Shown here: positions 2,405-59,692 of the stretch, piece by piece
How positions within the stretch are numbered: position 1 is the stretch's first letter
Layout of the letters: each line of letters opens with the position of its first letter
DNA from: Candidatus Omnitrophota bacterium
Lineage (GTDB): Bacteria; Omnitrophota; Gorgyraeia; Gygaellales; Profunditerraquicolaceae
Length of the DNA stretch: 64,000 bases
Reading direction: 5' to 3'
NCBI GenBank assembly: GCA_028716965.1
Contig: JAQUOV010000004.1
Span: 76,298 to 140,297, forward strand
Notes under the pieces: model-generated
The model's database searches: none
What the model was told of the DNA's origin: nothing
The model's input: only the letters and a program-made list of their open reading frames with translations
Position numbers and translations under genes: made by a program

Positions 2405-3100
2405 ATGAAAAATAATTTTCTCAAAGCCTTATTGGTTTTATTTATAACTTTAGGTTTGGCGGGATGCAGTTTTGTTTTTCAAAAGGGCAGGCGTTCCGAC
2501 GCCGAGAAGATCCAGGAGCTAAACGCCCAGCTGGATGAACTTTTGAGCTCAAAGAGCATGCTTGAACAGAAGTTAGGACAAGAGATAAATGACAGGCAGA
2601 TAAAGCTCCAAATGATGGAGAAGGGCCTGGTGATTACCGTCGTAGGCGACCTTTTGTTTGATTCCGGAAAAGCCAGTATCAGGCCGGAGGCGTATCCTTT
2701 ACTGAACAAGGTAGCCTCGGTATTGAAAGATAACATGGCACAGTTTAACATAGGCATAGAAGGGCATACGGATAATGTTCCGATCAAGGTATCAGGCTGG
2801 AAATCCAACTGGGAGCTTTCTACCGCGCGCGCCTTAAGTGTTCTGCATTATTTAGTCAAAGAACAGGGGATCTCTCCCGAACGTTTATCCGCAATCGGTT
2901 ATGGAGAATACCGGCCGGTAGATTCTAACGAAACAGCAGCAGGCCGTAAGCAGAATCGCAGGGTGGAGATTGTTATCCTGCCTAATGTTACCAAGGTTAA
3001 AAGCGGCTCTAATGGCCCGGTAGCGGTGAAAGATTCTGAAGAAAGCTCCGATACCACCGGTTCATCGGAACTTAAAGAACCCATAGATAATCTCAAATAA
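2405..3100 (+). CDS. OmpA/MotB-family lipoprotein (peptidoglycan-binding OmpA_C domain)
   Basis: Signal peptide plus lipobox LAGC; coiled-coil segment; C-terminal TDNVP...NRRVEIVIL OmpA_C signature. Confidence 0.8.
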   Translation: MKNNFLKALLVLFITLGLAGCSFVFQKGRRSDAEKIQELNAQLDELLSSKSMLEQKLGQEINDRQIKLQMMEKGLVITVVGDLLFDSGKASIRPEAYPLLNKVASVLKDNMAQFNIGIEGHTDNVPIKVSGWKSNWELSTARALSVLHYLVKEQGISPERLSAIGYGEYRPVDSNETAAGRKQNRRVEIVILPNVTKVKSGSNGPVAVKDSEESSDTTGSSELKEPIDNLK

Positions 3101-14277: not shown

Positions 14278-16437
14278 ATGCCCAAGGGAAAGAAAGAGAA
14301 AGCAGCAGTAAAGAAAACAGCTAAGCCTAAGGCCGCCGCGCAGAAGCGCGCGGAGCGCGCACCGGCTCACAAAATTGCTTCTAAAGGCCATGCCTTGAAA
14401 CCCAAAGCTGTGGTTAAGCCGCTTAAAACTAAAGATGCCGTTAAGAAGAAAAAGGAAGAAGTAAAGCCGGCAATCAAACATGCGGTAAAACATGAGCCGA
14501 AGGCCGAGCCTAAAATAGAGATTAAGCCTGTGCAGAAGCGCGCGGAGCGCGCACCGGTTCATCCGGCAGAGACTGCGCATAAGGAAGAAGTAAGGCCGGT
14601 CCATGGCCCCGAGGTTAAAGCCAGGGTAGCCCATGAGGTAAAACCGGAACCCGCCCCTGAAGCCAAAGTTGAAACTGTCCCGAGCAGGGAGATTGAGATT
14701 GAGCTGCCGATTACGCTTAAAGATTTGTCCGTAAAATTACAGGAGAAATCAAGTGTTCTCATAAAGCATTTTATGAATATGGGGATGATGGTCGGGATCA
14801 ACCAGTTTTTGGATGAAGGAGCCGTAAATAAACTGTGTTTAAAGTATGACTGCAGGATCAAGAAAGCCCTTGGTGCCGAAGAATCAGCCTTGCAGGAGCA
14901 TAAAGAAAAAGATAAGCCCGGTCAGCTTAATAAGCGTTCTCCCATCGTTACTTTTATGGGGCATGTTGATCACGGTAAGACCTCTCTTCTTGATGCCATA
15001 CGTAAAACCAAGGTTGCAGAAGGCGAGCACGGAGGGATTACCCAGCATATCGGCGCTTACCGGGTCAGCCTCCCCGAGGGTGCAATTACTTTCTTGGATA
15101 CGCCCGGCCATGAAGCATTTACCGCTATGCGCGCCCGCGGCGCGCGGATTACCGACATCGTAGTTTTGGTTGTTGCCGCAGACGACGGGATTATGCCGCA
15201 GACCCAGGAGGCAATTGACCATGCCCGGGCTGCAGGAGTATCTATTATTGTAGCCATAAATAAGATAGATAAGCCGCAGGCAAATATAGAGATGGTCAAG
15301 AAACAGTTATCTCAAGCCGGCCTGACAGCTGAAGATTGGGGCGGAAAGACGATCACTGTGCCTGTATCCGCCAAGACAGGTTCGGGAATAGATAATCTGC
15401 TTGAAATGATCCTTTTGCAGGCGGAGATCATGGAGTTAAAAGCAAACCCCAGCCGCCTGGCTTGCGGTGTGGTAGTTGAGGCAAAAATGGCTAAGGGCAG
15501 AGGGCCGGTAGCTACGCTTCTTGTGCAAAACGGAACTTTACACCTTAACCAGAATATAATTGTGGGTAATCTTTACGGAAAGATCAGGGCGATGCTGGAT
15601 GACCGCGGGCAGTCAGTGACTGTTGTCGGACCTGCTTCTCCCGTTGAGGTATTGGGGGTAAGCGGGATCCCCCAGGTAGGCGAGCAGTTTTTTGTGATTG
15701 AAGATGAAAAGCAGGCCAAGGGTTTAGTCCAGGCGCGCGTGGAAAAAGAGAGGCAGCAGCAGATAAAGAGCGTAAAAAGGGTAAGCCTGGAAGACCTGCA
15801 TACTCAAATTGCCGAGGGGAAGATCAAAGAATTAAAGCTGATTATTAAATCTGATGTCCAGGGGTCGCTGGAAGCAATCAAGGATACGCTGGATAAGTTA
15901 AATGTCTCTGAAATAAAGATTGATGTGATCCATACCGGAGTAGGCAATATTAATAATTCAGATGTAATCCTGGCGGTAGCCTCCGATGCCTTGATCGTAG
16001 GCTTTAATGTCAGCGCTGATGAGTTAGCTAAAGAGTTGATCTCCAAGGAGGGGATTGAAGTAAAAATATACAATATAATCTATGAGCTGGCCAATGATAT
16101 AAAAGCCGCTGTGGAAGGCATGCTTGACCCTAAGCTGAAAAGAGTGTTTTTAGGCAAGGCGGAGGTTAAGAAGATGTTTAAGCTTTCCCGTTCCGGGTTG
16201 ATCGCCGGCTGCATCGTAACCAAGGGCAAGATTAACCGTAACAGCCTGGTGGCGCTGGTGCGTAATGGCGAGGTTGTCTTTGAAGGCAAGCTTTCAAGCC
16301 TGAAGCGTTTTAAGGATGATGTGCGCGATGTCGCCGAAGGGTTTGAGTGCGGGATAGCTATCAGCGGTTTTGACCAGCTGATGGAGGGTGATGTTATTGA
16401 GGCATATGAAATAGAAAAGATCGCCAGGAAACTATGA
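14278..16437 (+). CDS. infB: translation initiation factor IF-2
   Basis: GHVDHGKT G1 motif, DTPGH, NKID; lysine/alanine-rich N-terminus containing two near-identical QKRAERAP repeats. Confidence 0.95.
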
Positions 16438-16512
16438 ACCCCGCACCTTATTGTAATTTAAATATTATTAGGTGTGAGGTTAAAAGAATAGATAAGAGAG
16501 AAGGTGCGGGGT
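16438..16512 (+). promoter_or_regulatory. perfect 12-bp long-range inverted repeat (accccgcacctt ... aaggtgcggggt) spanning from the infB stop to the trpS GTG start
   Basis: 5' arm begins the nucleotide after the infB stop. The 3' arm covers the putative SD (aagg) and the GTG start codon of trpS. The arms enclose 51 AT-rich nucleotides. Confidence 0.4.
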
Positions 16513-17491
16513 GAAGAAGAGAATATTAAGCGGTATGCGGCCTACAGGCAAGCTGCACCTGGGGCATCTGGTCGGCGCATTAGCCAATTGGACAAAACTT
16601 CAAGGCGAATACGAGTGTTTTTTTATGGTTGCTGACTGGCATGCGCTTATGTCGGAGTATGAAAACCCCTGCAGCCTTAAGGCAAACACGCTGGATAATA
16701 TTATTGATTGGCTTTCCTGCGGCATAGACCCTGAAAAATCCACGATTTTTATCCAGTCGCAGGTGCCGGAACACCTTGAGCTTTATTTTATCCTTTCATT
16801 GATTACCCCGCTTGGGCTATTGGAGCGCTGCCCTACCTATAAAGAACAGCTGCGCGAGGTGACCAACAGGGACTTAAGCACCTATGCCTTTTTGGGTTAT
16901 CCGGTTTTGCAGGCTGCAGACATCCTGCTCTATAAGGCCGATGCCGTGCCCGTGGGAGAAGATCAGCTGCCGCATCTGGAATTGACTCGCCAGATCGTGC
17001 GTAAATTCAACCATCTTTATAAGGCGGATTGTTTTCCCGAGCCGAAAGCTTTACTTACAGAAGCTCCCCGGCTCCTGGGATTAGACGGCCGTAAAATGAG
17101 CAAGAGCTATAATAATTATATCGGGTTATCCGAAGAGCCTGAAGATATCCGCAAAAAAGTACAGAATATGATAACCGACCCGCTGCGTATACGCCTAAGC
17201 GATCCCGGCCATCCGCATAAATGCAATGTTTTTAATTATTATTCTATATTCTTCCCGGAAATGAAACAGGAAGGCCAAGAGCGCTGCTCTAAATCCTCAA
17301 TCGGTTGCACCACCTGCAAGAAAGAGCTGGCGGATAAAATAATTAATTTATTGGCCCCTATCCGGGAAAAAAGGAAGGCATTGCTTAAGGATAAAAAGCT
17401 TATCCAGGATATTATCTCTGCGGGCAGCTTAAAGGCGTCTGGCCTTGCTAAAAAGACTATCCATGAGGTAAAGGGCTTACTGAAATTATAA
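16511..17491 (+). CDS. trpS: tryptophan--tRNA ligase
   Basis: Class I HIGH (GKLHLGH) and KMSKS motifs; GTG start. Confidence 0.93.
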   Translation: MKKRILSGMRPTGKLHLGHLVGALANWTKLQGEYECFFMVADWHALMSEYENPCSLKANTLDNIIDWLSCGIDPEKSTIFIQSQVPEHLELYFILSLITPLGLLERCPTYKEQLREVTNRDLSTYAFLGYPVLQAADILLYKADAVPVGEDQLPHLELTRQIVRKFNHLYKADCFPEPKALLTEAPRLLGLDGRKMSKSYNNYIGLSEEPEDIRKKVQNMITDPLRIRLSDPGHPHKCNVFNYYSIFFPEMKQEGQERCSKSSIGCTTCKKELADKIINLLAPIREKRKALLKDKKLIQDIISAGSLKASGLAKKTIHEVKGLLKL

Positions 17492-17492
17492 T

Positions 17493-18260
17493 ATGAACTA
17501 TAAAATACATTTAGAGATGTTTGAAGGCCCGCTTGACCTGCTTCTTTACCTGGTCAAGAAAGACCACCTTAATATTTACGATATCCCTATAGCAAAGGTT
17601 ACCCAGCAATACCTGGAGTATATTAATTTTATGCAGCTTCTGGACCTGGATATCGTAGGGGATTTCCTGGTGATGGCCGCTACCCTGATGCAAATAAAAT
17701 CCAAGATGCTGCTGCCGGCAAGCGAAACTCCGGCCGAAGAAGAACAGGAGGACCCGCGCGCAGAACTGGTGAAAAGGCTGCTGGAGTATGAAAAATTCAA
17801 GCAGATCGCCGAGGATTTAAGGGAAAGGGAGCTTAGCCAGCAGGATGTCTTCAAGCGCCAGAAGACAGAGGCGCCTCTGGATTCCCAGGCGCCCGAGAAG
17901 GGGGAAGATAAATATTTTGAGGCCAGCATATTTGACCTGATTAATGCTTTTTCCCGGGCCTTAAAAGATGTTCCCAAAGAAGTATTTTATGAGGTAATCA
18001 AGGACCAGTTTACGGTTGAGCAGAAGGTCCATGATATACTGCATCTTTTATTGCTTGAGGCAGATGTCAAACTTTCTACTTTATTCAATAAATCAAAAGA
18101 CAAGCTGGAAATAGTCGTAATCTTCCTGGCGATCCTGGAATTAACAAAAATGAAAGAGATCGTTGCCAGGCAGGATGCGGCATTTGAAGATATAATTATA
18201 TCGAGGAACAAGGAGAATATCATTCCCTATGAGCGAAGAGACCAGGCGGACCCTGCTTAA
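17493..18260 (+). CDS. scpA: segregation and condensation protein A
   Basis: ScpA N-terminal FEGPLDLLL motif and length. Confidence 0.85.
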   Translation: MNYKIHLEMFEGPLDLLLYLVKKDHLNIYDIPIAKVTQQYLEYINFMQLLDLDIVGDFLVMAATLMQIKSKMLLPASETPAEEEQEDPRAELVKRLLEYEKFKQIAEDLRERELSQQDVFKRQKTEAPLDSQAPEKGEDKYFEASIFDLINAFSRALKDVPKEVFYEVIKDQFTVEQKVHDILHLLLLEADVKLSTLFNKSKDKLEIVVIFLAILELTKMKEIVARQDAAFEDIIISRNKENIIPYERRDQADPA

Positions 18261-25593: not shown

Positions 25594-25720
25594 GGTTAAG
25601 ATTCCGCCTCACTTGTTCGGCGGATTTCGTTAAACAAGGGCATAGGGTGCTCAAAATTCACGCTTTGATACTTGACAGGTTTGTCAAGTATCAAGCGCTC
25701 ATTTAAAGGAGGCAACAGTA
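25594..25720 (+). promoter_or_regulatory. conserved ribosomal-protein leader/repeat, copy 1 (upstream of rplS)
   Basis: Shares taagattccgcctca...ttcggcgga...ttgac-hairpin-gtcaagcgctcatttaaaggaggca with 39985-40115. The last 23 nt before the start region are identical in both copies and include the RBS. Confidence 0.45.
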
Positions 25721-38045: not shown

Positions 38046-38628
38046 GTTAGTTTTAGGGATTACCGGCTGCATGGGGTCCGGAAAGAGCACCGTCGCCGGG
38101 ATGCTGAAAACAAAAGACTGCCAGCTTATTGACGCGGATAAACTGGCGCACGAGTTGCTTGGGGCAGGAAGCGTTGTTTACAAGAGGGTTGTTTCTTCTT
38201 TTGGAGAAGGCGTACTGAAAGACGATAAAACTATTGACCGCTTTAAGTTGGCTAAGGCAGCTTTTGCGGATAAAGCTGCCTTAAACAGGCTTAACGGTAT
38301 TGTCCATAAAGCGCTTATTGCCGAGATTAAACAGCGTGTTAAGAATTCCGGAAAGAAGCTTGTGATCCTGGATGCCGCCCTGATTATTGAAGCAGGGTTA
38401 AGGAAAATGGTTGATAAATTGGTAGTGGTTACTGCCGGGCGCAAAGAGAGGGTTGAGCGCAGCCGGAAAAGGCTGGGTTTAAGTAAAAACGAAATTTCCC
38501 GGAGAATGAAATATCAGATTTCGCAAAACGCAAAATTGCGCCTTGCGGATTTTATAATAGATAACAGCGGAGAAATCAGTAAAACCCGGAAACAGGTTTT
38601 TGAAATAAGGAGGAGTCTTGTTCGCTGA
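38023..38628 (+). CDS. coaE: dephospho-CoA kinase
   Basis: GITGxxGSGKST P-loop and length. Confidence 0.9.
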   Translation: MNKQKKNKLVLGITGCMGSGKSTVAGMLKTKDCQLIDADKLAHELLGAGSVVYKRVVSSFGEGVLKDDKTIDRFKLAKAAFADKAALNRLNGIVHKALIAEIKQRVKNSGKKLVILDAALIIEAGLRKMVDKLVVVTAGRKERVERSRKRLGLSKNEISRRMKYQISQNAKLRLADFIIDNSGEISKTRKQVFEIRRSLVR

Positions 38629-39984: not shown

Positions 39985-40115
39985 GATTCCGCCTCAGAAC
40001 CTATGCCAAAATTATCGTAGAGAATTTTGGCATATTCGGCGGAATAAATTCGCGCATTGACTTACTCACACTGTCGTGTTCGTAAGTCAAGCGCTCATTT
40101 AAAGGAGGCAGTAAA
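39985..40115 (+). promoter_or_regulatory. conserved ribosomal-protein leader/repeat, copy 2 (upstream of rpmE)
   Basis: Same 5' (taagattccgcctca) and 3' (gtcaagcgctcatttaaaggaggca) ends as 25594-25720. The outer stem ttccgcc/ggcggaa encloses an extra palindromic hairpin (atgccaaaatt...aattttggcat). A second hairpin (gacttac...gtaagtc) abuts the RBS. Confidence 0.45.
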
Positions 40116-40319: not shown

Positions 40320-40353
40320 GTAGTATATAGTAGGTAGAATGCAGGGTAGGGTT

Positions 40354-41424
40354 ATGAATGAACAACTGGAAAAAATAGAGGCGCGTTACCAGGAGCTGGA
40401 GCAGCTTTTAGCCAGCCACGAGCTGATTGCCGACCGTGAACAGTATAATAGACTGGCTAAAGAGCTTTCTGATATAAAGCCAATAGTGGTTTTATACCGC
40501 CAGCTCAAGAGTTTGCTTAAGGAAATTATTGACCTTGAAGTTGTGCTGACAGAGAAGCATGATAAGGATTTTCAAGAACTGGTGCAGCTGGAAATCAAGG
40601 AATTGGCTGTTAAGAAAGCGGATGTAGAGCTGAAGCTGGAGAAAATACTGGCTGGAGAAGATAAGGATGCCGGCAGGGCCTGTATCGTGGAGATCAGGCA
40701 GGGTACAGGCGGGGATGAAGCGGGGCTTTTTGCGGCTGACCTTTATCGCATGTATTCTAAATACGCGGACAATAAAGGCTGGGCGATTGAGCCGATGTTT
40801 TCCAGCACTAATGAGGCAGGAGGCGTAAAGGAGATTGCTTTCAGCGTAAAAGGCAAGGATGCATTCCGCTGCCTGAAATTTGAAAGCGGGGTGCACCGCG
40901 TGCAGCGTGTCCCCACTACCGAGTCGCAGGGCCGTATTCATACTTCTACCGCTACGGTTGCGGTTTTAGTCGAACCGGAAGAGGTGGACCTGGTGATTGA
41001 GCCGAAGGATTTAAGGATAGATACTTACCGTTCAAGCGGCCCCGGCGGCCAGCATATGCAGAAGACGGATTCAGCGGTAAGGATTACGCATGTCCCCACG
41101 GGCACGGTGGTTGCCTGCCAGGATGAGCGTTCGCAGATAAAAAACAGGGCCAAGGCAATGAGGGTGTTACGCGCCCGTATCCTGGAGTCCAAAATTGAGG
41201 CGGAAGCAAAGAAATTATCCAGCGCAAGAAAGACCCAGATCGGTACCGGTGACCGCAGCGAGAAGATCCGTACCTATAATTTCCCCGATCGCAGGGTTAC
41301 CGACCACAGGATCAATTTTACCTCGCATCAATTAGAGGCGATCCTGGAGGGACAGATGGATGAATTGACAGGTGCGCTATTAAAGGCGGAAGAAGAAAAG
41401 AAGAATGAGTCCCGCACCTTCTGA
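40354..41424 (+). CDS. prfA: peptide chain release factor 1
   Basis: PxT-like and GGQ (SGPGGQHMQKT) motifs. Start placed at the second ATG (MNEQLEKIE...) by homology to RF1 N-termini. Confidence 0.93.
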   Translation: MNEQLEKIEARYQELEQLLASHELIADREQYNRLAKELSDIKPIVVLYRQLKSLLKEIIDLEVVLTEKHDKDFQELVQLEIKELAVKKADVELKLEKILAGEDKDAGRACIVEIRQGTGGDEAGLFAADLYRMYSKYADNKGWAIEPMFSSTNEAGGVKEIAFSVKGKDAFRCLKFESGVHRVQRVPTTESQGRIHTSTATVAVLVEPEEVDLVIEPKDLRIDTYRSSGPGGQHMQKTDSAVRITHVPTGTVVACQDERSQIKNRAKAMRVLRARILESKIEAEAKKLSSARKTQIGTGDRSEKIRTYNFPDRRVTDHRINFTSHQLEAILEGQMDELTGALLKAEEEKKNESRTF

Positions 41425-41440
41425 TGTTTAATATTAGAGG

Positions 41441-42277
41441 ATGGCGGGTTATAGGATTGAGCATGATGAATACAGGAGAAGGCACGGGGTGAATGAGGCG
41501 GAATTAGTTTTAACCAGTGTTTTAAATTGTGACCGGCTGTCTTTGTACCTGAATAAGAATGCAAGGCTGGAAAAGGAAAAATGCGCGCTGCTTTCTGCGA
41601 TATTGAAACGCAGGGCCGTTGGCGAACCCGTGCAGTATATCCTGGGTGAAACCGAATTTATGGGTTTGAAGTTTAAAGTAGATAAGCGCGCCTTGATTCC
41701 CCGGCCGGAAACAGAGATTTTGGCTGAAACAGCTATAAACGCTTTAAAACAGGCGGGTATTGCCTGTCCCAAAGTCCTTGACCTTGGCACAGGTTCAGGT
41801 TGTATCGCCGTCTCAATAGCTAAAACCCTGAGCCGTTCAGAGGTATGGGGCAGTGATATATCAATTCCGGCATTGCAGTTAGCCAGAGAGAATGCCTGCT
41901 CAAACAACGCAGGGGTCAAGTTCATACGGAGCGATATTTTTGAGGCGTTTAAATCAGAGGATGATAAGTTTGATTTAATTGTCAGCAACCCGCCTTATGT
42001 ATCAACCGGAGAATTCCAGGCCCTGGCAAAAGAGATATCGTTTGAGCCGCAGATAGCTTTAAGCGCAGGCGCTGACGGGCTGGATTTTTACCGTCTCATA
42101 ACCCGCCAGGCTGCATCTTATTTGAAAGACGGCGGCTTGTTGATCTTTGAAGTGGGGAGAGGCCAGGCTGTTTTGGTCAAAGAGATGTTTGATAAGAAAG
42201 TTTTTGACCATTTAAGCCCGGTTATGGATTATAATAATATTGAACGCGTAGTTATGGCCAGGAAAAGGACAGCTTAA
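41441..42277 (+). CDS. prmC: release factor glutamine N5-methyltransferase
   Basis: GTGSG SAM motif and NPPY motif. The true start may be the in-frame GTG ~50 nt downstream. Confidence 0.85.
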   Translation: MAGYRIEHDEYRRRHGVNEAELVLTSVLNCDRLSLYLNKNARLEKEKCALLSAILKRRAVGEPVQYILGETEFMGLKFKVDKRALIPRPETEILAETAINALKQAGIACPKVLDLGTGSGCIAVSIAKTLSRSEVWGSDISIPALQLARENACSNNAGVKFIRSDIFEAFKSEDDKFDLIVSNPPYVSTGEFQALAKEISFEPQIALSAGADGLDFYRLITRQAASYLKDGGLLIFEVGRGQAVLVKEMFDKKVFDHLSPVMDYNNIERVVMARKRTA

Positions 42278-56959: not shown

Positions 56960-59692
56960 ATGAGAACAGAAAAGATTGCCTGCGTTTCGGTATTGACCGG
57001 GCCTTTAAAAGGCCGGGAATTTCCGGTTAAATCAGATTCTCCCGTATTAATAGGCAGGGATGATCATACGACTATTAAGATTGCTTACGATGATTATTGC
57101 TCAAGAAAGCACGCGATAATTTATCTTGAGGGCATGATCTGCCTTATTGAAGATTTAAACAGCGCCAATGGTACGCTCCTGAATAATACCCTTATCCACG
57201 GAAAGAATGAATTAAAAGATAAAGACGTTATAGGCCTCGGAGATACCAAGCTGGTTGTTTCTATAAAAGATTCTCTTAAGGAAGAAAGCATCGCGCCGGA
57301 TTTGGCTACTAACATAAAAACCGGTGATTCCATATACGGGCGTTATGAAGTGCATCATATCCTGGAAGCCGGGATAGGGATTGCCTGCGTCTGTTATGAT
57401 AATATAAACCAGGTTCCTTACGTACTGAAGACCCTGCAAAGAAAGTATTTGGTTTCCCCGCAAAGCCAATCCTGTTTTGAGAAGAAATCGCTTGCCTGGA
57501 TAGGGTTAGGCAAACATCCTTATATTGTCAGCGCCTATTTAGCCATCCGGATAGAAAACTACCCTTTTATTGTCCTTGATTATATTGTACCGGATGAGAA
57601 CGGGAGAAACAGCTTAAGCCATCTGCTGGGGAATCTAACTTTATCCGAGATCCTTAAATATTCAATAGAGTTTTGTTACGGCATGGAGCATGCTTACGCA
57701 AAAGGAATTGAGGCTCACGGAAATATAAAACCGAATAATATTATGATTACTCCAGATAAAGCCGTGAAGATAACCGATTTCGGGTTTGCAAAATTATCGC
57801 AAGAGATCGATTTTAACGAGCATATCCCGGAAAAAGAAGATTTGGATTTGGCTATTTTCAAAAGTAATAGCGGTGTAACCGCCGGCACGCTTCCTTATAT
57901 GGCTCCCGAGCAATTTGACGGACAGATGAACCAGCTAAGCGATATTTATTCTTTCGGCGTTGTCCTTTACCAGATGGCTAAGGCAGGGGCATTGCCTTTT
58001 AGCGGGAAGGGCCCATCGGAATACGAGAAGGCGCATAAGGAACAGGCAGCTGCTGGTTTTGACTCGCCTCTTTTTGCCATTATCAAGAAATGTTTGGAAA
58101 AAGACCCCGCTAAAAGATATATTGACTTTGCAGCGATGAGGATAGAGCTGCAGGAATTGCTTTTAAAGGAAACAGGGGAGAAGATAACTCTGCCGGAAGG
58201 CGCAAAGCTGGAATCTTGTGAAGCTATGAATAAAGGTGCTTCTTTATATTATCTCGGTAGGTACGAAGGGGGGATTGCCTGTTACGATAAGGCCATAGCC
58301 ATTAACCCCGCATATTCCGATGCCTATTATAACCGGGGCAATGCCTATTATGATAAAGGCGATCTTGTGCAGGCTGTCTCTGATTACAGCAAGGCCATAG
58401 AAATTAACCCCGCATATTCCAAGGCTTATTACAGAAGGGGAGTTTTCTATCATAGTAAAGGCAATCTTGTATTGGCTATCTCTGACTACAATAAAGCTAT
58501 AGAGATCAATCCCGCATATCCCGATGCCTATTATAACCGGGGCAATGCCTATTATGATAAGGGCGATCTTGTGCAGGCTGTCTCTGATTACAGCAAGGCC
58601 ATGGAGATCAGCCCTAAAGATGCCAAGGCTTATAAGGGCCGGGGTATTGCTCATTATAAAAAAGGAGAGCTTGAGCTGTCTATCTCTGATTATAATAAAG
58701 CTTTAGAGATCAACCCTAACGATGCCGAAGCTTACAGCAGCCGGGGGATTGCTTATTATAAGAAAGGTAAATTTGACCTGTCTATCTCTGACTACAATAA
58801 AGCTATAGAGATCAATCCCGCATATCCCAATGCCTATTATAACCGGGGCAATGCCTATTATGATAAGGGCGATCTTGTGCAGGCTGTCTCTGATTACAAT
58901 AAGGCCATAGAGATCAACCCTAAAGACGCCGAAGCTTACAGCAGCCGGGGGATTGCTTATTATAAAAAAGGAGATTTTGAAGAAGCTATCTCTGATTACA
59001 GCAGGGCAATAGCCATTAACCCCGCATATTCCAAAGCTTATTGTAACCGAGGCAATGCCTATTATGATAAAGGCAGCTTTGAACAGGCTATCTCTGATTA
59101 CAATAAGGCCATAGAGATCAATCCTAAAGATTCTGAAGTCTATAGAAGCCGCGGGGTCGCCTATCACGTTAGAGGCAACCTTGAGCAGGCTGTCTCTGAT
59201 TACAATAAGGCCATAGAGATCAACCCTAAAGACGCTAGAGCCTATAACAGCCGCGGGATCGCCTATTACAAAAAAGGCGATCTTGTGCAGGCTATCTCTG
59301 ATTACAGTAACGCCATAGAGATCAACCCTAAAGATGCCGAAGCCTATAACAGCCGCGGGATCGCCTATCACGTCAGAGGCAAACTTGAGCAGGCCATCTT
59401 TGATTTTAGCAGGGCTATAGCAATCAACCCGGAATATTCCAAGGCTTATTGTAACCGGGGAGGCGTCCATTATGATAAAGGGTATCTTGAAGAAGCTATC
59501 TCTGACTACAATAAAGCCATAGAGATCAACCCTGAATATTCCAAAGCTTATTGCAGCCGCGGGGCTGCTTATTTCTTGAAAAAAGACTATGATAAAAGCT
59601 GGAAAGATGTGCATAAGGCAGAAGAATTAGGATATAAGATCCCCATTAATTTGATTAATGATTTGAAAAAAGCTTCTGGTAAGGGGATTTGA
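56960..59692 (+). CDS. FHA domain - Ser/Thr kinase-like domain (probable pseudokinase) - 14x TPR repeat protein
   Basis: N-terminal FHA (GR...SRKHA...NGT). Kinase fold with DFG and APE present, but the catalytic loop reads HGNIKPNN instead of HRDLKPxN and no canonical glycine-rich loop. C-terminal half consists of 34-aa TPR units. Confidence 0.85.
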   Translation: MRTEKIACVSVLTGPLKGREFPVKSDSPVLIGRDDHTTIKIAYDDYCSRKHAIIYLEGMICLIEDLNSANGTLLNNTLIHGKNELKDKDVIGLGDTKLVVSIKDSLKEESIAPDLATNIKTGDSIYGRYEVHHILEAGIGIACVCYDNINQVPYVLKTLQRKYLVSPQSQSCFEKKSLAWIGLGKHPYIVSAYLAIRIENYPFIVLDYIVPDENGRNSLSHLLGNLTLSEILKYSIEFCYGMEHAYAKGIEAHGNIKPNNIMITPDKAVKITDFGFAKLSQEIDFNEHIPEKEDLDLAIFKSNSGVTAGTLPYMAPEQFDGQMNQLSDIYSFGVVLYQMAKAGALPFSGKGPSEYEKAHKEQAAAGFDSPLFAIIKKCLEKDPAKRYIDFAAMRIELQELLLKETGEKITLPEGAKLESCEAMNKGASLYYLGRYEGGIACYDKAIAINPAYSDAYYNRGNAYYDKGDLVQAVSDYSKAIEINPAYSKAYYRRGVFYHSKGNLVLAISDYNKAIEINPAYPDAYYNRGNAYYDKGDLVQAVSDYSKAMEISPKDAKAYKGRGIAHYKKGELELSISDYNKALEINPNDAEAYSSRGIAYYKKGKFDLSISDYNKAIEINPAYPNAYYNRGNAYYDKGDLVQAVSDYNKAIEINPKDAEAYSSRGIAYYKKGDFEEAISDYSRAIAINPAYSKAYCNRGNAYYDKGSFEQAISDYNKAIEINPKDSEVYRSRGVAYHVRGNLEQAVSDYNKAIEINPKDARAYNSRGIAYYKKGDLVQAISDYSNAIEINPKDAEAYNSRGIAYHVRGKLEQAIFDFSRAIAINPEYSKAYCNRGGVHYDKGYLEEAISDYNKAIEINPEYSKAYCSRGAAYFLKKDYDKSWKDVHKAEELGYKIPINLINDLKKASGKGI
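58244..59614 (+). repeat. array of ~102-nt (34-codon) tandem repeats encoding the TPR units, several copies nearly identical at the DNA level
   Basis: For example 58321-58380, 58525-58585 and 58825-58885 are almost identical; the repeats create the spurious 303-aa minus-strand ORF. Confidence 0.7.

Follow-up and report, generated by a model that had tools for sequence, protein, structure and literature searches.

The stem between infB and trpS very probably represents the terminal inverted repeats of a non-autonomous mobile element that inserted into an ancestral ATGA overlap of the two genes. As part of the same reading, the paired repeats would occlude the trpS start, a relay of translation would carry ribosomes across the element, and a GIY-YIG protein would have mobilised it in trans. 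Comparison with related loci established, at the level of sequence, the insertion, its repeats, its target-site duplication, the family to which it belongs, the autonomous partners of that family and the rebuilt start codons.

The stem and the insertion at the infB/trpS junction

The window (the whole stretch of DNA that was analysed, 64,000 nt from an uncultured organism) carries rimP, nusA, infB, trpS, scpA, ruvB and queH on the plus strand. The infB coding sequence was placed at 14278..16437 (plus strand, stop TGA 16435-16437) from its open reading frame and translation, and that of trpS at 16511..17491 (plus strand), a 326-codon ORF whose GTG start aligns with the ATG of relatives (MKKRIL...). 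An exact-sequence look-up of the window TrpS and of the protein P0133 found no recorded match. The original prediction had described a perfect 12-bp pairing with a 51-nt gap at this junction, and direct inspection of the sequence re-found it, with a left arm ACCCCGCACCTT (16438-16449, plus strand) and a right arm AAGGTGCGGGGT (16501-16512, plus strand) that is its exact complement (12 nt, 100% complementary). The placement of the arms was also as described, the left one opening directly behind the infB stop and the right one covering AAGG (16501-16504) and the leading GT of the trpS GTG (16511-13), and the spacer is indeed AT-rich (23.5% G+C by direct count over its 51 nt). Folding of 16420-16530 returned the 12-bp stem in the minimum-energy structure (-24.2 kcal/mol, z = -3.0), with 1 of 200 shuffles as stable.

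Alignment to full-length elements showed that the DNA between the two genes is a MITE-like element of 73 nt (16439..16511, plus strand), an internal-deletion derivative of a GIY-YIG element. Its left terminal inverted repeat, CCCCGCACCTT (16439..16449, plus strand; family consensus CCCCGCACCTTCT), equals the left stem arm without the flanking A, and its right terminal inverted repeat is AAGGTGCGGGG (16501..16511, plus strand; family consensus AGAAGGTGCGGGG). These repeats are complementary at 11 of 11 positions, the family consensus pairing over 13 bp. The outermost A-T pair of the 12-bp stem comes from a duplicated TGAA and lies outside the repeat proper, which the original prediction had overlooked. 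The right repeat supplies a Shine-Dalgarno-like (SD-like) (G)AAGG 6 nt before the new start, as well as the G of the GTG.

The vacant form of the site is present in a close relative. Locus L018 has the empty site ctATGAAgaagagaata, where the window reads ctaTGAA, the 73 nt and then TGAAgaagagaata; over the wider junction, ...gctATGAAgaagagaata in L018 stands against ...actaTGAA in the window, followed by the element from CCCCGCACCTT to AAGGTGCGGGG and by TGAAgaagagaata. The window is longer than L018 here by exactly 77 nt, which the 73-nt element and one TGAA account for in full. From this comparison the left copy of the TGAA target-site duplication lies at 16435..16438 (plus strand), divided as TGA and A, and the right copy at 16512..16515 (plus strand), where its TG completes the trpS GTG and its TGA is the stop of a short relay ORF. 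The trpS start codon is thus composed of the last G of the element and the TG of the duplication.

A search with TrpS gave 80 loci (63-91% identity), nearly all of them carrying the label Candidatus Omnitrophota. The order infB then trpS, directly adjacent, is kept in 79 of these 80 sampled genomes; elsewhere the nusA-infB operon usually continues with rbfA and truB, and trpS is an unusual partner. The C-terminal 112 aa of InfB are 50-92% identical across the 79 relatives, and the junction at the end of infB, ...aggaaactATGA, is kept in relatives, with the ancestral trpS Shine-Dalgarno AGGA (16426-16429, plus strand) lying within the last infB codons. The intergenic sequence of the window was found in none of the 79 relatives with infB-trpS synteny. 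The two genes overlap as ATGA in 26 of the 79, including the four closest (L001, L002, L004 and L018; TrpS identity to the window 88-91%), all four of which read ctATGAAg uninterrupted at this point.

Other, unrelated inserts of 40-180 nt occupy the infB/trpS junction in at least 17 of the 79 relatives, at about 2840-3000 of each locus (L020, L031, L033, L034, L036, L037, L039, L042, L047, L051, L056, L057, L058, L061, L063, L066 and L078). These are mostly long imperfect hairpins, with arms of 25-57 nt that are 70-88% complementary in the five loci measured. The arms consist of tandem repeats of about 7 nt, the unit of which varies by genome (GTAAATC/G, GTAACTA, CTAAATC, TGTAAYG, TTCGGCG and others). 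Such hairpins are also intergenic elsewhere in L047 (712-795 and 6766-6854), and none was seen in the window.

The repeat family and its GIY-YIG partners

We class the window feature as a MITE of a new family. It is small, carries no transposase gene and has terminal inverted repeats; the family is multi-copy, shows a target-site duplication with empty sites in relatives, and includes an autonomous element with the same ends. Aligned with elements of 295-303 nt, the window copy corresponds to their two ends (~45 nt on the left and ~30 nt on the right), with ~222 nt missing between them. Copies of the same 73-nt size were found in L010, L083, L136, L153 and L197.

A BLASTN query with the element matched a second one within the window, where prfA meets prmC (41410-41489), as well as the 73-nt copy in L010, which lies at the trpS/scpA junction. 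That site is vacant in the window, which reads ...taatATGAACTATAAAATAC there, with the empty target ATGAA at the start of scpA, a gene named by Pfam (17493..17497, plus strand; ATGAACTAT at 17493); the filled site in L010 reads ...aagATGAA, then the element from CCCCGTACCTTCT to AGAAGGTGCGGGG, then TGAAttataaaatac. A metagenome scan with one end, ATGAACCCCGNACCTT, returned at least 120 loci, roughly 50 of which have AGAAGGTGCGGGG followed directly by TGAA 40-300 nt downstream. In the window and the fetched loci together there are at least 47 paired copies, 45-295 nt long, most of them within the metagenome-scan loci.

The target duplication is usually TGAA on both sides. Only two clean duplications of another sequence were seen, TAAA/TAAA in L118 and TCAA/TCAA in L136 (found via the right end alone). 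In L121 (1473-1690) and L090 (6957-7070) copies stand in tandem, the later one having entered the GTGAA that its predecessor created, and a 144-nt nested composite occurs at two different sites of one L093 contig. Taken together, the filled and empty sites, the duplications and the tandem and composite copies point to a transposable element with a 4-bp target duplication of TNAA type. A third repeat variant, CCCCGCCCATTCT / AGAATGAGCGGGG, was observed among the L090, L121 and L093 arrays.

The family was seen in Omnitrophota MAGs and in metagenome contigs without taxon assignment; the source labels of relatives of the nuclease described below also name Sedimentisphaerales and Nitrospirota. A scan of viral contigs with the right end gave four chance matches, none with a left end. 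The proteins P0099 and P0039 are present on many contigs, but each proved to sit in a single context recovered from many samples, with no sign of recent copies. The 12-mer AATTACAATAAG was considered as a relative of the element and rejected, as it belongs to the TPR repeats of a 910-aa protein; the ORF in question (56960-59692) has many TPR-like repeats (AISDYNKAIEINPKDAEAY...), and the 12-mer occurs in it at 58893, 59097 and 59199.

The second window copy is older (80 nt, 41410..41489, plus strand, by BLASTN and alignment), with ends TCCCGCACCTTCT and AGAAGGCACGGGG and flanks aaTGAG and TGAAtgagg. Its repeats have decayed, with two central mismatches and one G-U pair, and the long-range stem is no longer predicted in it (z = -0.44). 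The prmC coding sequence (41489..42277, plus strand; Pfam PrmC_N and MTS) begins at a GTG made of the element end and the duplicated TG. The PrmC of relatives starts MNEAELVL and that of the window VNEAELVL at GTG 41489, a match which indicates that this second copy also lies on an ATGAA start. The public PrmC model MDD5561129.1 (278 aa, from ATG 41441) wrongly runs into the element (41441-41488). On the other side, the frame of prfA (RF1; 40339..41424, plus strand, stop 41422-41424) runs 12 nt into the element, which adds SRTF. The fetched loci contained no prfA/prmC junction of a relative, and PrmC N-termini were compared instead. Among PrmC orthologues at 61-72% identity, P0244, P0246, P0247, P0249, P0258, P0260-P0262 and P0297 have a V (GTG) start, and P0284 has an N-terminal extension, MCRQRKECG-VNEAELVL, that resembles a translated right repeat. 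The sequences suggest an insertion at the prmC start that is either ancient or has happened repeatedly in Omnitrophota.

Full-length elements measure 295-303 nt and contain a single ORF for a 100-aa single-domain GIY-YIG nuclease. In L102 and L201 the repeat type of the window surrounds such a 100-aa ORF, with GIY-YIG as its sole Pfam domain (3.8e-16). The L102-type protein (MNPAPS...MYHVYLL...FYIGYT...KKEGAG-stop) has 297 relatives, and the full-length ones start MNPAPS and end EGAG-stop; the first and last codons of the ORF are the inverted repeats themselves. At the infB/trpS junction of L045 there is a 270-nt insert, TGAA followed by CCCCGTTAGACCTC...GAGGTCTAACGGGG and again TGAA, filled by a 91-aa ORF that likewise has GIY-YIG as its sole Pfam domain (3.9e-13), takes the ATG of the host as its start and has as its stop a TGA that overlaps the new trpS GTG. 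This sister subfamily has CCCCGTTAGACCTCC ends and the protein form MNPVRP...GGLTG-stop, with 473 relatives, nearly all of 88-92 aa; these termini, common to the great majority of the 23 L045-type relatives sampled, are the translated inverted repeats. By tblastn the 64-kb window itself holds no full-length GIY-YIG gene. One such gene, MDD5561039.1, which is 65% identical to the L102 protein, shares a 204,696-nt contig with the window's PrmC MDD5561129.1, their accession numbers lying 90 apart. The nearest solved structures to the GIY-YIG protein are UPF0213 BH0048 and EF2693 (PDB 1zg2, 1e-6; 1ywl), followed by SLX1, and NCBIfam gave no family-level match.

We infer that the GIY-YIG protein mobilises the full-length elements and, in trans, the MITEs. 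A 4-bp staggered cut with strand transfer is, to our knowledge, not a known GIY-YIG activity. On the sequences in hand we put forward, tentatively and at somewhat less than even chances, that the full-length elements are an undescribed class of prokaryotic transposon, and the smallest autonomous transposon of prokaryotes (~275-305 bp). The only gene in them would encode a single-domain GIY-YIG nuclease of Slx1/UPF0213/Ssn-like type, with the repeats themselves as its boundaries; lacking expression signals of its own, this gene would depend on a captured host SD and ATG. The host would be repaid with an SD and a GTG, built from the 3' end of the element and the target duplication, and the MITEs, the window copy among them, would keep host genes expressed by way of a translated relay ORF that melts the hairpin.

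Single-domain GIY-YIG nucleases acting on single-stranded DNA, Ssn (cd10448), have genes bracketed by NTS/SRM hairpins (Chenal et al., Nat Commun 2025, PMC11893778); the authors likened NTS-ssnA-NTS to an insertion sequence, mobility not having been shown for Ssn (PMC11893778). The repeats studied here could likewise be host-domesticated hairpins like NTS/SRM of Neisseria, serving as sites for a resident single-domain GIY-YIG nuclease of single-stranded DNA with a cellular role (e.g., control of incoming DNA) and no longer mobile. The partner is, as in Ssn, a 90-100-aa single-domain GIY-YIG protein, the short copies (45-46 nt) are simple hairpins, and the published Ssn genes are bracketed by their repeats in the same way. 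We consider this unlikely, as the filled and empty sites, the precise duplications, the nested and tandem insertions and the composite found at two sites all argue for recent mobility, and the published SRM motif (HGTCWY..RNCYNB), searched as a regular expression, fits nowhere in or next to the elements of the window, L010, L045, L102, L201 and L204. The domesticated-repeat reading and the mobile-element reading are mutually compatible.

Rebuilt start codons and the expression of trpS

On the evidence of their sequences, elements of the family appear to lie mostly on ATG/AA start codons. The scan pattern demanded ATGAA at the left end, so this bias is partly imposed; independent support comes from the long downstream ORFs and from the elements that were found via the protein. 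Of 47 paired copies, 37 have a long ORF that starts at the terminal GTG (median 173 codons, vs 0 and 6 in the other two frames). More than 20 different host genes are used. Host genes checked by Pfam are scpA, trpS, prmC, gcvPB and dnaE; from their N-terminal sequences we take others to be queC, nrdR, metG, purN, lpxA, queA, rpmC and rpmJ, and presumably also lolC-like genes and glycosyltransferases. Independent public gene calls place a full-length element between gcvPA and gcvPB, overlapping each of them by 4 nt, one between guaB and dnaE, where the ATG begins 1 nt past the guaB end and a 4-nt GTGA overlap leads onto dnaE, and a further full-length one between two uncharacterised genes with a 4-nt overlap with the downstream gene. 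The SD-like purine-rich block in the 3' repeat is either GAAGG 6 nt before the GTG or GGAGG 9 nt before it, according to subfamily (two were seen).

It would appear that the element takes the host SD and ATG for its own ORF, and that its 3' end gives back GAAGG together with the G of a new GTG, which the duplicated TG completes and which is in frame with the host gene. This structure would account for the elements being tolerated on the starts of essential genes (trpS, dnaE, metG, ribosomal proteins). The start annotation of two window genes is hereby corrected, as trpS and prmC begin at element-made GTGs, and gene callers will systematically mis-start genes downstream of such elements.

At infB/trpS the ancestral trpS ATG opens a remnant relay ORF of 26 codons (16434..16514, plus strand, by translation). 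Its ATG (16434-16436) overlaps the infB stop as ATGA, and its TGA (16512-16514) overlaps the GTG as GTGA. Both of its termini match those of the full-length GIY-YIG proteins (MNPAPS...K[KR]EGAG-stop), and no GIY-YIG or other Pfam domain is left in it. In the infB-trpS mRNA the paired repeats would hide the new SD and GTG. Ribosomes ending infB at its UGA would reinitiate on the AUG that overlaps it and read the 26 codons of the remnant across the two arms. Those coming from infB, like those on the relay ORF, would expose GAAGG and GUG, then stop at the UGA atop the GUG and restart on trpS.

Opening of 16498-16516 was calculated to cost 10.1 kcal/mol in the free mRNA, and 3.0 kcal/mol when 16420-16449 was held single-stranded as a stand-in for a ribosome at the infB stop; at the uninterrupted junctions of relatives the opening cost is 3.6-5.3 kcal/mol. 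These modelled energies suggest that independent initiation on trpS should be poor, and in silico they uphold the earlier claim that the stem would occlude the trpS start. The claim that unwinding by the infB ribosome would couple the two genes is supported in part, in silico: the predicted cost does fall as it requires, and the 73-nt gap across which direct coupling had been proposed is bridged by the 26-codon ORF, which the original prediction had missed, so the coupling would take the form of a relay. On this modelling we infer that trpS is still translationally coupled to infB, as before the insertion, and it is plausible that the coupling is now a by-product of that insertion.

The relay ORF is intact in 17 of the 47 copies, the window's included, and not intact in the other 30. 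A length that keeps the frame is found in 25/47 copies (p = 0.004), or in 14/30 when each size class is counted once; as the excess shrinks in this way, selection for the relay ORF is only suggested. The ATG frame is free of stops in 20 of the 47 copies vs 5 of the 47 in the only other informative frame. The 30 copies lacking an intact relay ORF, together with the loss of the stem in the prmC copy, indicate that neither is required for host-gene expression.

It had been proposed that the stem is an evolved cis-regulatory device dedicated to trpS, acting through coupling to infB or by sensing uncharged tRNA-Trp, a TRAP-like protein or another trans factor. This is very improbable. The stem does cover the SD and start codon and is thermodynamically strong. 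Conservation of its arms in relatives was looked for at the 79 syntenic loci and they are absent from all of them, an outcome that by the proposal's own terms speaks against it, and the closest relatives have the plain ATGA overlap. The arms are near-invariant across copies and do not covary, and the pairing is lost in the second copy of the same genome. The sensor idea is left without support as well, as the element is not specific to trpS: the same arms precede many unrelated genes (scpA, prmC, nrdR, gcvPB, rpmJ, rpmC and metG). Rfam at gathering threshold gave nothing relevant for the whole window, neither a T-box nor any other match, and a permissive Rfam search (E up to 10) of 16300-16700 gave only a chance microRNA match of 21 bits vs a threshold of 200. 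A tempting false lead is thereby removed, there being no tryptophan-responsive or infB-specific regulator at infB/trpS.

The window holds four distinct perfect 12-mer inverted pairs with a loop of at most 100 nt, where ~0.57 are expected in a 64-kb first-order Markov (dinucleotide-matched) random sequence, and by this chance count alone the infB/trpS stem is only modestly unlikely. The other perfect inverted repeats of at least 12 bp in the window (25665-25694, 38253-38283 and 40002-40034) have loops of 4-9 nt and may be intrinsic terminators. That the infB/trpS stem is a chance inverted repeat, for which that expectation per window would leave room, or an intrinsic terminator or attenuator between the two genes can be given next to no weight, because dozens of other copies, in a family of at least 47, end in these two arms, and because the loop is 51 nt, no U-tract follows and the terminator scan was silent at 16438-16512 (in 16200-16700 the promoter and terminator scan reported a single weak promoter-like match, on the minus strand, and nothing at the stem).

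Comparison with known systems

The predicted behaviour of the mRNA resembles that of rpmI-rplT (E. coli infC operon) and of MS2 coat-replicase, in which a ribosome-binding site is paired with upstream sequence and opened only by upstream translation. Those are conserved, evolved operon structures, whereas the stem described here is missing in relatives and would have arisen incidentally from the ends of a transposon.

Rickettsia palindromic elements are palindromic mobile repeats that are tolerated in genes by keeping the reading frame. They sit inside coding regions and add peptide segments, whereas here the first codon is the insertion site and the GTG start is the only change to the host protein. 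The Correia elements of Neisseria are likewise small MITEs without coding capacity; they have terminal inverted repeats and a short target duplication, occur in many gene-adjacent copies, and form long hairpins that alter the expression of neighbouring genes when co-transcribed. They differ in duplicating TA, whereas the present family has a GIY-YIG partner and rebuilds the host SD and start; no autonomous partner of GIY-YIG type is known for Correia elements, nor are they reported to replace start codons.

Free-standing GIY-YIG homing endonuclease genes of T4-like phages (seg genes) are listed in PMC2988022, and resemble the full-length elements as small selfish GIY-YIG genes wedged between host operon genes. 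Homing enzymes have separate DNA-binding domains and one cognate site, without inverted ends or target duplications, whereas here the protein has a single domain and there are many sites. A free-standing homing endonuclease was considered as an identity for the element-encoded protein and rejected, as this single-domain protein has no added DNA-binding domain and more than 20 host genes are used. An earlier survey regarded the stand-alone Slx1-like GIY-YIG domains of prokaryotes as a product of vertical inheritance (PMC1564403).

In the literature on bacterial GIY-YIG genes with inverted ends and target duplication, or on MITEs of these, we found no description of such a family, the nearest being the Ssn paper. 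The likeness to Ssn lies in the ~94-aa GIY-YIG protein without an extra DNA-binding domain and in the multi-copy, hairpin-forming repeat that brackets the nuclease gene. Compared with Ssn by published description and motif, an end consists here of one arm only, which pairs with the arm at the far end of the element, and both lie inside the ORF, where they encode MNPAPS and EGAG-stop; there is also a 4-bp target duplication, and the insertions are on start codons. If the GIY-YIG protein is the mobilising enzyme, a nuclease fold would be added to the known transposase repertoire, and the IS-like architecture that was only remarked on in the Ssn study would gain evidence of mobility.
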